This document shows, piece after piece, positions 13,578 through 32,966 of a stretch of 64,000 nt of DNA. The stretch's first letter is position 1. The number at the start of each line of letters is the position of its first letter. The notes beneath the pieces are model-generated. The model had not been told where the DNA came from, made no database searches, and saw only the letters and a list, made by a program, of their open reading frames with translations. Both the position numbers and the translations under genes were made by a program. Source of the stretch: Thermoanaerobaculia bacterium (GTDB taxonomy: Bacteria; Acidobacteriota; Thermoanaerobaculia; UBA5066; Gp7-AA6); NCBI GenBank assembly GCA_036406835.1, contig DASXAG010000089.1, forward strand, positions 478 to 64,477, given 5' to 3'.

Positions 13578-14923
13578 TGAGCCGAACCGCCATCCGGGTC
13601 CAGGACCTCGGAAAGCAGTACACGCTGGGCCGCTCGCGCGCGAGCTACCGCACGCTGCGCGAGACGCTCATGGAGGCCGTCGCCCGCCCGTTCGAGCGGA
13701 TCCGCCGCAACCGGCCGACGGCCGAGACGATCTGGGCCCTCAAGAACGTCAGCTTCGAGATCCCGGACGGGCAGGCCGTCGGCGTCATCGGACGCAACGG
13801 CGCCGGCAAGAGCACGCTCCTCAAGGTCCTCTCCCGAATCACGATGCCGACGCAGGGCCGGGCGGAGATCCACGGCCGCGTCGGGTCGCTGCTCGAGGTC
13901 GGCACCGGATTCCACCCGGAGCTGACGGGACGCGAGAACACGTACCTGAACGGCGCGATCCTCGGGATGCGCAATCGCGAGATCGACAAGCGCTTCGACG
14001 ACATCGTGCAGTTCGCCGAGCTCGAGAAGTTCGTGGACACGCCCGTCAAGCACTACTCGAGCGGCATGTACATGCGTCTCGCGTTCGCGGTCGCGGCGCA
14101 CCTCGAGACCGAGATCCTGCTGATCGACGAGGTCCTCGCGGTCGGCGACGCGACCTTCCAGAAGCGCTGCCTCGGCAAGATGGAAGAGGTCGCCGCCGCC
14201 GGCCGGACGGTTCTCTTCGTGAGCCACAACATGACCGCCGTCTCGGCGCTCTGCAGCCGGGCCATCTGGATCGACGCGGGGAGCCTCGGCGCCGACGGCG
14301 CCGCGGACGAGGTCACCTCGCGCTACATCCAGGCGCTCGCCTCGGGCGACTTCCAGTTCGTGAATCCGGAGCACGGACTCGCGATCGAGAGCGTCACGCT
14401 CCGCAACGGGGCGGGGGAACGGACGCAGTTCTTCAGCCCGGGCGACGACCTCTGCGTCGAGATGGCGTTCGAGGCGAAGAAGCCGCTCCAGGGAGTGTTC
14501 GTCCGCGTCCAGATCGAGAGCCTCGCGGGCTCCTGCTTCGCGGCCAACATGCTGCTCGACGGACAACGGCCGGAGCGGCTGGACGGGCGCGGCGTCCTCG
14601 CGTGCCGGTTCAAGGCGCTGCCGCTCCTGCCGCAGACCTACACGGTCAAGCTGGCGGTCGTCGGACCGGACGGGAAGGAGCCCATCGTCCGGATCCAGGA
14701 GGTCGCCTCGTTCACGGTCAACGGAGCGGCGGAGGAGTACGGCTTCTCGGGCGAGTTCTTCCATCGGTTCGTGGCGCACCACACGTCCGTGGTCGTTCCC
14801 TATGAATGGATCCTGCCGGACGGGACGGTCAAGCCCGTCTTCGTCCGCGAAGGCATGGCGCTTCCCCCGAGCGCCGACAACCGTGCGCTCGGGCTGGGCG
14901 CCCGCGGAGAGGTGAAGCGATGA
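13577..14923 (+). CDS. wzt: ABC polysaccharide export ATPase, Wzt-like, with ~200-aa C-terminal carbohydrate-binding extension
   Basis: Walker A GRNGAGKST, signature SSGMYMRLAF and Walker B LLIDEVLAVGD are present. A long C-terminal beta-rich domain follows the NBD, as in O-antigen Wzt proteins that recognise the chain terminus. TGATG overlap with wzm. Confidence 0.85.
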   Translation: MSRTAIRVQDLGKQYTLGRSRASYRTLRETLMEAVARPFERIRRNRPTAETIWALKNVSFEIPDGQAVGVIGRNGAGKSTLLKVLSRITMPTQGRAEIHGRVGSLLEVGTGFHPELTGRENTYLNGAILGMRNREIDKRFDDIVQFAELEKFVDTPVKHYSSGMYMRLAFAVAAHLETEILLIDEVLAVGDATFQKRCLGKMEEVAAAGRTVLFVSHNMTAVSALCSRAIWIDAGSLGADGAADEVTSRYIQALASGDFQFVNPEHGLAIESVTLRNGAGERTQFFSPGDDLCVEMAFEAKKPLQGVFVRVQIESLAGSCFAANMLLDGQRPERLDGRGVLACRFKALPLLPQTYTVKLAVVGPDGKEPIVRIQEVASFTVNGAAEEYGFSGEFFHRFVAHHTSVVVPYEWILPDGTVKPVFVREGMALPPSADNRALGLGARGEVKR

Positions 14924-15963
14924 CGGAACCCCGGTTCGACTGGTCCGACAAGTCCGTGCTCGTGACGGGCGGGACGGGATCCTTCGGCAAGAAGTTCATC
15001 GAGATCATGCTGAAGGAGTTCCGCCCCGCCAGGCTGATCGTCTTCTCGCGCGACGAGCTCAAGCAGCACGACATGCGCCAGGTCTTCTCCGACCGCGAGG
15101 GCAAGCCGATGCGCTACTTCATCGGCGACGTCCGCGACCAGGAGAGGCTTCGCCGCGCGTTCCAGGGCGTCCACATCGTCGTCCACGCCGCGGCGATGAA
15201 GCAGGTGCCGGCCTGCGAGTACAACCCCATCGAGGCCGTCATGACGAACGTCAACGGCGCGCGCAACGTCATCTCGGCCGCGCTCGACGCGGGCGTGCAG
15301 AAGGTGCTCGCGCTCTCGACCGACAAGGCCGTCAATCCCGTCAACCTCTACGGCGCCACCAAGCTCGTGGCCGAGAAGCTGTTCATCCAGGGCAACGCCT
15401 ACAGCGGCAGCAGCCCGACCTGCTTCTCGTGCGTCCGCTACGGGAACGTCGTCGGCAGCCGCGGCAGCGTGATTCCGCTGTTCCAGAACCAGCGCAAGAA
15501 CGGGTTCGTGACCGTGACCGACCTGCGCATGACGCGGTTCTGGATCAGCCTGGCGCAGGGCGTGCGGTTCGTCATCCGCAGCATCGAGCGGATGCACGGG
15601 GGCGAGATCTTCGTGCCCAAGCTGCCGAGCGCCGCGCTCAAGAGCCTGGCCGAGGCCGCGGCCCCCGGCTGCCGCATCGACACGATCGGGATTCGGCCCG
15701 GGGAAAAGCTCCACGAGGTCCTCGTCTCGCAGGACGAGGCGCGCAACACCCTCGAGTTCGACGACATGTTCGTCGTCAAGCCGGCCCCGCGCTGGCTCTT
15801 CGGGGCGGATCCCTGGACGGGAGGCCGGTCTCTGCCCGAGGGCTTCACCTACGCCAGCGACAACAATCCGGACATGCTGACGACCGAGGAGATCCGCGAG
15901 ATGGTGGAGGAGACCTCGGCCGGGCGGCCGACTCCCATCCAGCCGACGCCGGTCGCCACGTGA
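14920..15963 (+). CDS. pseB: UDP-N-acetylglucosamine 4,6-dehydratase (inverting), PseB/FlaA1-like
   Basis: KSVLVTGGTGSFGKKF, the YGATKLVAEKLF catalytic motif and the ~345-aa short CapD/PseB architecture are present. ATGA overlap with wzt. Confidence 0.85.
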   Translation: MTEPRFDWSDKSVLVTGGTGSFGKKFIEIMLKEFRPARLIVFSRDELKQHDMRQVFSDREGKPMRYFIGDVRDQERLRRAFQGVHIVVHAAAMKQVPACEYNPIEAVMTNVNGARNVISAALDAGVQKVLALSTDKAVNPVNLYGATKLVAEKLFIQGNAYSGSSPTCFSCVRYGNVVGSRGSVIPLFQNQRKNGFVTVTDLRMTRFWISLAQGVRFVIRSIERMHGGEIFVPKLPSAALKSLAEAAAPGCRIDTIGIRPGEKLHEVLVSQDEARNTLEFDDMFVVKPAPRWLFGADPWTGGRSLPEGFTYASDNNPDMLTTEEIREMVEETSAGRPTPIQPTPVAT

Positions 15964-31821: not shown

Positions 31822-32966
31822 CGCGCGAAATCCTGTTCCTGACCGCGACGCGCGCGGACTTCGGCAAGCTGAAGCCCTTGATCGCGCGCGTCCGCGATTC
31901 CGAGGCGTTCACCTACCGGATCTTCGTCACCGGGATGCACATGCTCTCGCGGTACGGCTCGACGGCCCGCGAGATCGAGAAGGCCGGCTTCACCGGCCTG
32001 TTCCAGCACATCAACCAGGACGGCGCCGTCACCTCGCAGATGGACCTCGTGCTCGCCAACACGATCCAGGGCCTCGGCCACTACATCCGCGAGTTTCCGC
32101 CGGACCTCGTCGTGGTCCACGGCGACCGGCTCGAGGCGCTGGCCGGCGCCGCGGTCGGAGCGCTCAACAACACGCTCGTGGCCCACGTCGAGGGCGGCGA
32201 GCTCTCGGGCACGGTCGACGAGCTCCTGCGTCACGCGGTCTCCAAGCTCTCCCACGTCCACTTCGTCGCCAACGAGGAGGCCCGCACGCGGCTGGTCCAG
32301 ATGGGGGAGCTGCCGGAGAGCGTGTTCGTGGTCGGGTCGCCCGACATCGACGTGATGCTCGGGGACACGCTGCCGGATCTCGACGAGGTCCGCCGGAAGT
32401 ACGCGATCCCGTTCGGCGACTACGTCATCCTCATGTACCACCCGGTGACGACGGAGCTCGAACGGCTGCCCGGCCACATCGAGGAGGTCGCCGCCGCGAT
32501 CGAGGCGTCGGGCCGCCGGTGCGTCGCGATCTACCCGAATAACGACTCGGGCTCGGAGGTCATCCTGGACAGGCTGCGCACGCTCGAGGCGGGCGACGCG
32601 GCGAGATTCCGGCTGATCCCGTCGATGCGCTTCGAGTATTTCCTGAGCCTGCTCCGGGGCGCCTCGGCGATCGTGGGCAACTCGAGCGCGGGAGTCCGCG
32701 AGGCGCCGGTCTACGGCGTGCCGACCGTCAACATCGGGTCGCGCCAGCTCAACCGATTCCGGGGAGGCGCCTCGGTCCTCAACGTCCCCGAGGAGCGCGC
32801 CGCGATTCGGAAGGCGCTCGAGAACCTGCCGCGCGACTGCGCGCCGTCGCGTCACTTCGGGCACGGAAACAGCGCGGAGCTCTTCCTGAAGACGCTCGCG
32901 GAGCCCGCCTTCTGGAAGACGCCGCGGCAGAAGCAGTTCCGCGACGTGGGAATGGCGCGTGGCTGA
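31818..32966 (+). CDS. neuC: UDP-N-acetylglucosamine 2-epimerase (hydrolysing), NeuC/LegG-like
   Basis: ILFLTATRADFGKLKPLI, VVHGDRLEALAGA and HVEGGE are present. The TTG start overlaps the neuB stop (TTGA). An in-frame GTG at 31803 is an alternative start. Confidence 0.75.
   Translation: MTREILFLTATRADFGKLKPLIARVRDSEAFTYRIFVTGMHMLSRYGSTAREIEKAGFTGLFQHINQDGAVTSQMDLVLANTIQGLGHYIREFPPDLVVVHGDRLEALAGAAVGALNNTLVAHVEGGELSGTVDELLRHAVSKLSHVHFVANEEARTRLVQMGELPESVFVVGSPDIDVMLGDTLPDLDEVRRKYAIPFGDYVILMYHPVTTELERLPGHIEEVAAAIEASGRRCVAIYPNNDSGSEVILDRLRTLEAGDAARFRLIPSMRFEYFLSLLRGASAIVGNSSAGVREAPVYGVPTVNIGSRQLNRFRGGASVLNVPEERAAIRKALENLPRDCAPSRHFGHGNSAELFLKTLAEPAFWKTPRQKQFRDVGMARG

Follow-up and report, generated by a model that had tools for sequence, protein, structure and literature searches.

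Genes for two nonulosonic acids, two candidate GT-B transferases, and an ABC exporter in one surface-polysaccharide operon of a soil acidobacterium

The flagellin glycosylation locus of Campylobacter jejuni encodes, side by side, the pathways for two nonulosonic acids (NulOs; acidic sugars of nine carbons), pseudaminic acid (Pse) and legionaminic acid (Leg). The capsules of Neisseria meningitidis group B and Escherichia coli K1 are made by a three-enzyme neuC-neuB-neuA route from UDP-N-acetylglucosamine (UDP-GlcNAc) and by ATP-binding cassette (ABC) transporter-dependent export. In Tannerella forsythia, the S-layer O-glycan carries a terminal Pse or Leg derivative that depends on Tanf_01245 or TFUB4_00887, two proteins of the BFO_1060 family; knock-outs lose this terminal sugar (PMC5420450). 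Here, we analyzed a 64,000-nucleotide (nt) stretch of DNA (contig DASXAG010000089.1 of assembly GCA_036406835.1, hereafter the window) from a soil acidobacterium of the class Thermoanaerobaculia, known from metagenomes only. The window carries a surface-polysaccharide operon of about 45 kb, which opens with a NusG-family gene and has NulO genes at its centre. These comprise a Pse set and a separate NeuA/NeuB/NeuC-type set, as an initial annotation had claimed and as curated protein models and gene order bear out. Genes are named below by their coordinates in the window (14920 is the gene starting at that position), and labels such as L006 denote compared loci or contigs.

The locus is similar to that of C. 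jejuni in that two NulO pathways lie in one locus, each with its own NeuB paralogue and cytidylyltransferase. However, the C. jejuni sugars are Pse and Leg and reach flagellin via Maf-type proteins, whereas the window combines a Pse-type with a NeuC/NeuB/NeuA-type pathway in a polysaccharide export operon with TagB-like glycosyltransferases (GTs) and has no flagellar or Maf genes. The T. forsythia NulO locus shares another trait: the block for the cytidine monophosphate (CMP)-activated NulO is directly followed by a soluble TagB/GT-B-like protein of about 450 amino acids (aa). The family tie is given by gene 28698, whose product scores above the BFO_1060 cut-off, the family of Tanf_01245 (Pse derivative) and TFUB4_00887 (Leg derivative). 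The comparison extends to a methyltransferase in the cluster and to an NDP-sugar dehydrogenase and a TviC-like 4-epimerase upstream, which make an N-acetylhexosaminuronic acid a plausible acceptor. Unlike the window, with its two pathways, two divergent GT homologues and ABC exporter, T. forsythia has one NulO pathway per strain and an S-layer O-glycan. The N. meningitidis and E. coli capsule loci resemble the second gene set and share the mode of export, but the window has no GT38 polysialyltransferase and no KpsS/KpsC, encodes a Wzm/Wzt-type transporter that carries a Wzt_C domain, and interleaves a second NulO pathway.

Two further systems are informative. In the PseJ route of Reimer et al. 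(2018), as cited in PMC11040635, a formyltransferase also lies in a pse cluster without PseH; the window protein (21241) is longer (250 aa), carries a C-terminal sugar N-formyltransferase dimerisation domain (PF18216), and has a predicted activity. In the Bacillus subtilis sps operon, a cytidylyltransferase gene likewise lies beside a PseG-family gene (SpsG), and the TagB-domain protein SpsB adjoins the NulO pathway (PMC7439481). SpsB cautions against assigning a function from the TagB domain alone.

We hypothesize that the operon unites two independent CMP-NulO supply lines, one of the 5-N-acetyl-7-N-formyl pseudaminic acid (Pse5Ac7Fo) type and one of the N-acetylneuraminic acid (Neu5Ac) type, with two GT-B transferases and ABC export. 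We hold this to be fairly probable.

Two gene sets for nonulosonic acid synthesis

Because plain open reading frame lists are mostly noise in this window of about 70% G+C, genes were called by third-position GC. This yielded 42 genes in a single co-directional array on the + strand (4146..54288), and all gene starts named in the initial annotation are starts of called genes. Families were assigned with curated NCBIfam equivalog models and their cut-offs, together with Pfam; at E-values as low as 1e-143, chance is not at issue in these matches. The genes of the two lines and the candidate transferases are the following.

14920..15963, + strand: PseB, inverting UDP-GlcNAc 4,6-dehydratase (TIGR03589, 478.1 bits; cut-off 407.75)
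15972..17156, + strand: PseC aminotransferase (TIGR03588, 466.9 bits; cut-off 423.5)
19393..20160, + strand: CTP_transf_3 cytidylyltransferase, non-PseF (PF02348, 112 bits; best solved relative 6oew, 142 bits)
20157..21233, + strand: PseG UDP-sugar hydrolase (TIGR03590, 175.8 bits; cut-off 153.55)
21241..21993, + strand: sugar N-formyltransferase with a PseJ-like catalytic core (PseJ 6ci2/6ci4, 120 bits; Formyl_trans_N and N_formyltrans_C)
26560..27636, + strand: PseI pseudaminic acid synthase (TIGR03586, 473.6 bits; cut-off 340.25)
28698..30074, + strand: BFO_1060/TIGR04396 family glycosyltransferase (NF046086, 255.1 bits, cut-off 200; TIGR04396, 192 bits, cut-off 125)
30071..30760, + strand: NeuA-like cytidylyltransferase (NeuA 9ftb, 118 bits; N. 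meningitidis CMP-Neu5Ac synthetase 1eyr, 112 bits)
30787..31821, + strand: NeuB-family nonulosonate synthase of the N. meningitidis NeuB (NmNeuB)-like clade (PF03102, 251 bits)
31818..32966, + strand: NeuC-type hydrolysing UDP-GlcNAc 2-epimerase (TIGR03568, 384.2 bits; cut-off 235.9)
32959..34434, + strand: TagB/BFO_1060-superfamily GT-B protein, 491 aa (no Pfam family; AlphaFold2 model with GT-B fold, predicted local distance difference test score [pLDDT] 89.6)

The initial annotation had seen a recognizable CMP-Pse route in the first set. This stands for PseB, PseC, PseG and PseI, all above their cut-offs, but two steps depart from the canonical pathway. When the 42 genes were scanned for domains, none showed an acetyltransferase domain of the GNAT or hexapeptide type; canonical PseH is therefore absent. 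The formyltransferase gene 21241 sits between pseG and the next tailoring gene, and the best solved relative of its product is PseJ, which completes the Pse5Ac7Fo route according to the account of Reimer 2018 cited in PMC11040635. Since PseH is absent and PseJ is the closest solved relative, we predict that the 21241 protein stands in for PseH and that the product is the 7-N-formyl derivative, Pse5Ac7Fo.

The other departure concerns activation. The 19393 protein gave no match to the PseF model TIGR03584 at E <= 1e-5, and the 30071 protein reached 156 bits, below the cut-off of 205.7. Both are generic CTP_transf_3 proteins, and cytidylyltransferase activity is thus available, though from a source other than a PseF equivalog. 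The best solved relative of 19393, 6oew, is itself an uncharacterised cytidylyltransferase. In 80 metagenomic loci with relatives of the 17167 protein (described below), the 19393 type of cytidylyltransferase was found in 18 and the NeuA-like type in 5. Judged by its position and this co-occurrence, 19393 most likely encodes the CMP-Pse synthetase.

For the second set, we scanned GTDB species genomes, which gave 80 loci from many phyla with synthases 65-91% identical to 30787, and searched all 42 window proteins against these loci. Relatives of the NeuA-like 30071 adjoin NeuB and NeuC in most of them; none of the NCBIfam models matched by 30071 is NeuA specific. The 30787 synthase aligns with N. 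meningitidis NeuB (1xuu) over its full length (340 residues; 427 bits, 56% identity) and keeps the motifs EIGINHEG, YKIGSGE, LSTGM, GLSDH, HFT, PGPD and WVKRPG. PseI is only 32% identical to 1xuu. The outcome named beforehand as refuting two pathways, both synthases in one functional clade, did not occur: 26560 is PseI by equivalog, and 30787 is NmNeuB-like. The two synthases share 36% identity, and the two cytidylyltransferases share 28% over 123 aa.

In the route that we propose for the first line, which leads to a 5,7-diamino sugar, UDP-GlcNAc would be processed by PseB and PseC, and the 4-amino group would be N-formylated by the PseJ-like 21241 enzyme instead of PseH. PseG would then remove UDP, PseI would catalyze the condensation with phosphoenolpyruvate (PEP), and activation, most likely by the non-PseF enzyme 19393, would give CMP-Pse5Ac7Fo, with further modification possible by a methyltransferase, an AAC(3)-DUF4910 fusion and the 17167 protein. 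In the second line, NeuC (31818) would convert UDP-GlcNAc into N-acetylmannosamine (ManNAc), from which NeuB (30787) would make Neu5Ac and NeuA (30071) CMP-Neu5Ac.

Type of the second sugar and the candidate transferases

The initial annotation left the second module as sialic or legionaminic. A NeuC-family epimerase, a NeuB-family synthase and a NeuA-like enzyme are indeed present, and of the two sugars Neu5Ac is favored. Curated models failed to separate them: NCBIfam has no LegI model, and TIGR03569 gives 361 bits for the window NeuB and 345 bits for a Leg-like synthase of L006. A tblastn search against plasmids for a named reference LegI returned only the labels 'N-acetylneuraminate synthase family' and pseI. 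A neighbor-joining tree, computed from 103 rows that include some duplicates and represent about 90 synthases, sets PseI apart from a Leg-like group and both from the NmNeuB-like clade. Because partners of LegG-type and NeuC-type epimerases are intermixed in the NmNeuB-like clade, the synthase alone cannot separate Neu from Leg, and the decision rests on the epimerase.

In the 80 GTDB loci, the identity of the neighboring epimerase to the window NeuC is bimodal, at 29-38% or 44-88%, with nothing between. Two epimerases of the low group score 320 and 254 bits against the solved Acinetobacter baumannii LegG and about 180 bits against human GNE, whereas the window enzyme scores 183 bits against LegG (5zlr) and 191 bits against GNE. 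The low group, of which these two members were tested, is thus of the LegG type, and 31818 is of the NeuC type. NeuC-type epimerases alone occur in 56 of the 80 loci, with a DegT aminotransferase within 10 kb in 5 of them; LegG-type epimerases alone occur in 16, with DegT in 7. Both types are present in three loci (L060, L064, L069), and there a Leg-like synthase (33-39% identical to the window NeuB) pairs with the LegG-type enzyme and an NmNeuB-like synthase with the NeuC-type enzyme. A Leg pathway comprises a LegG-type epimerase and a dedicated dehydratase, aminotransferase and N-acetyltransferase; the window epimerase is of the other type, and no LegH/PglD-type acetyltransferase was found in the 42 genes. 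Since 31818 groups with the NeuC type and not with the LegG type, the product of the second module is probably Neu5Ac.

Each module is followed by a GT-B-like protein, which the initial annotation had taken for a paralogous pair of NulO transferases. The candidacy of both has held up, but they are not close paralogues. The two proteins are 25% identical over 320 aa (BLASTP, E 2e-11; hhalign probability 96.8%), and 32959 reaches only 36 bits on NF046086, below the cut-off of 200; they are distant homologues at the level of the superfamily. We consider 28698, a member of the BFO_1060 family, as a candidate CMP-Pse-dependent transferase and 32959, based on homology, its GT-B model and its conserved neighborhood, as a candidate CMP-sialate-dependent one. 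Domain scans of the 42 genes found no sialyltransferase domain of GT38, GT42, GT52 or GT80 (e.g., PF07388). His318-Pro319 is invariant across the 32959 family, and many of its members carry PF04464 (CDP-glycerol glycerophosphotransferase).

The gene neighborhoods support the pairing of the first GT with Pse and of the second with the sialate, as far as donors can be predicted from position across loci. Sialic/Kdn-type modules, in other phyla too, are flanked by homologues of 32959 (L088-L090); in 11 more loci such a homologue is found near neuABC, in most cases right next to it. L088 and the window are syntenic, except that neuABC is swapped for a cytidylyltransferase-HAD fusion and a short NeuB without SAF domain; the 32959 homologue still follows the sialic/Kdn-type module and the 28698 homologue follows PseI. 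The same split is seen around the ABC exporter in L089 and L090, where the 28698 homologues sit with the diamino-type module.

The swapped module itself (L088:3356-5454, L089:4841-6976, L090:4920-7001), with its cytidylyltransferase-HAD phosphatase fusion and SAF-less NeuB, resembles a Kdn/Neu-9-phosphate-type route. A 32959 homologue lies within one gene of it in all three loci, which suggests modular swapping of the sialic-type sugar.

Export, conservation and competing explanations

The locus is authentic and maintained. Four shorter metagenome contigs (L001-L004) carry a NeuB gene identical to that of the window, and one of these, the independent 9-kb contig L001, spans the end of 21990 and genes 24158..31818 at 99-100% amino acid identity. 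The closest genome, an Acidobacteriota metagenome-assembled genome of the Thermoanaerobaculia (L008), is collinear with the window from 20910 to 41701 (21 kb, 82.5% nucleotide identity), and two JGI contigs (L096, L097) carry the synteny upstream to the NusG-family gene 9585. An assembly chimera at the module junction was thus rejected. In all 16 genes compared between the window and L008 (21241 to 41101), including both synthases, NeuA, NeuC and both GT-Bs, the ratio of nonsynonymous to synonymous substitution rates (dN/dS) was 0.08-0.30. Both modules are therefore kept by purifying selection in at least two species, and decay of one of them was likewise rejected.

The 30787 NeuB clade is 65-75% identical across Acidobacteriota, Myxococcota, Chloroflexota, Gemmatimonadota, Actinomycetota, Cyanobacteria, Patescibacteria and one archaeal-labelled bin (loci L008-L087). 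Its star-like tree and unusual conservation suggest strong constraint and frequent horizontal transfer.

The exporter genes lie directly upstream of pseB.

12711-13577, + strand: Wzm (ABC2_membrane, 60 bits)
13577-14923, + strand: Wzt (ABC_tran, 80 bits; Wzt_C, 52 bits)

A Wzm permease and a Wzt ATPase with a Wzt_C domain, the hallmarks of ABC-transporter-dependent polysaccharides, are thus both present, and by homology they form the ABC exporter of such a glycan, with a carbohydrate-binding domain at the C terminus of Wzt. We propose that the soluble GT-Bs 28698 and 32959 would act in the cytoplasm, each adding one of the two sugars to a lipid-linked glycan. This glycan would be primed by a PglC-like enzyme, extended by the downstream GT4 and GT2 enzymes, and exported through Wzm/Wzt and Wza/Wzc.

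Several observations weigh against two supply lines feeding these two transferases. The 19393 cytidylyltransferase is outside the PseF family and is assigned by position and co-occurrence; the 30787 NeuB scores 361.4 bits on TIGR03569 (NeuB_NnaB), under the cut-off of 399.65; its clade mixes partners of both epimerase types; a PglF-like dehydratase and a DegT aminotransferase are encoded in the same operon, 17-20 kb downstream; the cassette around 28698 homologues has no NeuB-family gene within 8 kb in 3 of 4 loci (L092-L095); and Leg transfer in B. subtilis proceeds without SpsB, although this TagB-domain protein is encoded next to the Leg pathway (PMC7439481). Some of these points would fit a second module that makes Leg or an epimer of it, so that the cell, like Campylobacter, would display Pse and Leg. 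The PglF-like 52342, DegT 50269 and an N-acetyltransferase such as the AAC(3) domain of 21990 would then provide UDP-N,N'-diacetylbacillosamine (UDP-diNAcBac), which 31818 would hydrolyse and epimerise before condensation with PEP by 30787 and activation by 30071. In line with this, synthases 68-71% identical to 30787 adjoin LegG-type epimerases, in five loci (L018, L022, L023, L041, L058) together with short-chain dehydrogenase/reductase (SDR) and DegT genes. Moreover, the Leg-making NeuB of Legionella reportedly complements an E. coli K1 neuB mutant, and similarity to NmNeuB is thus compatible with Leg. However, 31818 belongs to the NeuC-type identity group, with 183 bits to the solved LegG versus 254-320 for LegG-type neighbors, and enzymes of its group are mostly encoded in a neuA-neuB-neuC triad that stands by itself: 51 of 56 loci lack an aminotransferase gene within 10 kb. 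The DegT and PglF-like genes are the only possible source of a Leg precursor in the operon, but at their distance of 17-20 kb they flank the PglC-like priming transferase, the usual layout for a priming sugar, and a PglD/LegH-type acetyltransferase was not found in the operon. We therefore regard Leg as distinctly unlikely. It is also improbable, if slightly less so, that the GT-B proteins move another CMP- or CDP-activated group, such as a Kdo-type sugar or glycerol phosphate, and that the real NulO transferases are the GT4/GT2 enzymes or the membrane proteins 24158 and 34431. The PF04464 domain of many 32959 homologues, the dispensability of SpsB, a 32959 homologue in L091 with no NulO gene within 7 kb, the NeuB-free neighborhoods of 28698 homologues and the generic GT-B matches that Foldseek returned all agree with such a role. 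On the other hand, 28698 lies above the cut-off of a family that is genetically required for Pse/Leg transfer (PMC5420450), and homologues of 32959 lie beside or one gene from a NulO synthase and cytidylyltransferase in L013, L040, L044, L056, L061, L069 and L088-L090. The invariant His-Pro motif and the absence of GT38, GT42, GT52 and GT80 domains from the operon also speak for NulO transfer.

The strongest challenge to our proposal concerns the polymers. Both sugars could be made but end up on different glycoconjugates, or one of them could be a chain-terminating cap only, rather than part of one repeat; in that case the operon would combine genes for an ABC-transporter-dependent NulO glycan with those for a Wzy/Wzc-type heteropolysaccharide. 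We rate this a little below even. In some O-antigen systems, it is the C-terminal domain of Wzt that recognises the terminal cap. The operon encodes two export or assembly sets, Wzm/Wzt with Wzt_C on one side and Wza, Wzc, a Wzy_C protein and a PHP phosphatase on the other, and in several phyla neuABC lies between or beside wzm and wzt (L006, L019, L051, L056, L082). However, the window genes form one unbroken co-directional array. Gaps are at most 31 nt throughout 13577-36038, which includes the NulO part; most neighbors overlap by 1-11 nt, many by 4 nt; and a terminator scan found no + strand terminator-like site between 9781 and 36883. Domain scans of the window recognised no Wzx flippase, and acceptors are not assignable from sequence. 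Conversely, it is unlikely, in our view, that both GT-Bs build or cap a single ABC-exported glycan with formylated Pse and sialic acid, for example as an alternating or block NulO segment. In a variant of this possibility, a NulO cap could be read by the carbohydrate-binding domain of Wzt as an export-licensing signal. Whether both sugars share one polymer, which the initial annotation had assumed, is not decidable from the sequence.

Neighboring genes, related loci and implications

Besides the exporter, the proposal of two supply lines involves or adjoins the following genes.

9585..10166, + strand: NusG-family paralogue, likely the first gene of the transcription unit (PF02357, 36 bits)
17167..18651, + strand: soluble all-beta protein, uncharacterised, 494 aa, of a rare family tied to Pse-type clusters
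18641..19393, + strand: S-adenosylmethionine-dependent methyltransferase, tailoring (Methyltransf_23, 70 bits)
21990..24161, + strand: fusion of an AAC(3)-type N-acetyltransferase and a DUF4910/DUF2172 metallopeptidase-like domain, putative tailoring protein (PF02522, 100 bits; PF16254, 221 bits)
24158..26563, + strand: polytopic membrane protein, DUF6044/YfhO-like, about 9 hydrophobic segments (PF19510, 68 bits)
27668..28684, + strand: Gfo/Idh/MocA oxidoreductase (PF01408, 51 bits)
34431..36038, + strand: polytopic membrane protein, about 8 hydrophobic segments
50269-51516, + strand: DegT aminotransferase (PF01041, 374 bits)
51513-52184, + strand: PglC-like phosphoglycosyltransferase (PF02397, 166 bits)
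52342-54288, + strand: PglF-like membrane 4,6-dehydratase (PF02719, 379 bits)

Upstream of the Pse set, the array encodes a TPR protein and a putative outer-membrane protein, then Wza, Wzc and the NusG paralogue, and after these the NDP-sugar dehydrogenase, the TviC-like 4-epimerase, Wzm and Wzt. The transcription unit probably starts at the NusG-family gene 9585, and the gene spacing suggests that the array is co-transcribed. A promoter scan found no sigma-70-like promoter, a scan that is uninformative at 70% G+C, and an Rfam scan of the whole window gave no match. A hairpin with a T-run lies at 9438-9453, directly after wzc and upstream of the NusG-family gene, and the NusG-first layout recurs in L006, L089 and L090. 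This arrangement suggests dedicated antitermination of a long operon.

The downstream part encodes, besides GT4 and GT2 transferases and polysaccharide deacetylases, a Wzy_C protein, a PHP phosphatase and one enzyme each of the AMP-binding and ATP-grasp types. The DegT, PglC-like and PglF-like trio at the end of the array probably makes the priming sugar. The last genes (44897-54288, + strand) comprise the AMP-binding, ATP-grasp, PHP phosphatase, DegT, PglC-like and PglF-like genes without a PglD-type acetyltransferase, and the priming sugar may be a 4-amino-4,6-dideoxy-N-acetylhexosamine with an unusual N-acyl group.

The 17167 protein, which has no Pfam or NCBIfam match at E <= 1, belongs to a family of 281 clusters among 1.84e9 representatives. 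Its AlphaFold2 model (pLDDT 94.8) is all-beta and multidomain, with no PDB fold match, and His, Arg and Asn residues are invariant in the family. In the 80 metagenomic loci with homologues, a PseB-like gene was found in 33, DegT in 23, a NulO synthase in 22 and the 19393-like cytidylyltransferase in 18. We take it for a probable tailoring enzyme, so far uncharacterised, of Pse-type clusters. A role as PseH substitute was rejected, since a homologue coexists with a PseG-GNAT fusion in L099. The DUF4910 family, present in the 21990 fusion, has been linked to modified-sugar clusters (PMC4000134). The membrane protein 34431 has a 42% identical homologue adjoining the 32959 homologue in L088, and the two thus travel together.

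Around 28698 homologues, a cassette recurs that consists of a 19393-like cytidylyltransferase, sometimes a methyltransferase, AAC3-DUF4910, a DUF6044 or pyruvyl-transferase-like protein, and then the 28698 homologue. In the window, the cassette genes (18641-20160, 21990-26563, 27668-30074) are interleaved with pseB, C, G, I and the formyltransferase gene.

Related loci show further arrangements. In L006:7906-14606, and also in L019 and L056 (Acidobacteriota, Chloroflexota), neuA-neuB-neuC lies between wzm and wzt, together with a methyltransferase in L006; such a placement hints at a link between the nonulosonate and export, e.g., through a terminal cap read by Wzt. In Moorena producens (CP017599; L007:8047-13703), a 72%-identical NeuB is flanked on one side by a cytidylyltransferase and a member of the polysialyltransferase family PF07388 and on the other by a methyltransferase and a Rieske/metallo-beta-lactamase-like protein reminiscent of CMP-Neu5Ac hydroxylase, with no NeuC nearby.

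The initial annotation had called two NulOs in one surface polymer uncommon, which is overstated. A second NulO synthase lies within 10 kb in 10 of the 80 GTDB loci with a close NeuB relative, wzm or wzt lies beside neuABC in 10, and 17 encode a homologue of either GT-B protein. Additionally, NulOs have been chemically detected in most environmental microbes, and mass-spectrometry surveys found several of them in most positive species (PMC8157484). The dual-NulO arrangement is thus a recurrent theme, little described for Acidobacteriota, and a new combination of known parts rather than a new type of system. It changes no concept but extends known pathways to a new lineage and combination.

In uncultured soil phyla, NulO genes and transferases have barely been mapped, and this locus offers a clean, conserved example from the Acidobacteriota. 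It points to two candidate transferases in a family of which only one precedent has been studied genetically, and it indicates that the formylated (PseJ) variant of Pse synthesis and a non-PseF cytidylyltransferase occur outside the Firmicutes. If the predicted donor specificities hold, the GT-B enzymes would serve as useful tools for pseudaminylation and sialylation by chemoenzymatic means. If the less likely reading holds, in which a single ABC-exported glycan contains both sugars, the layout of two NulOs, two transferases and an ABC exporter would represent a recurrent, as yet undescribed class of acidic surface polymers in Acidobacteriota and other soil and aquatic phyla.

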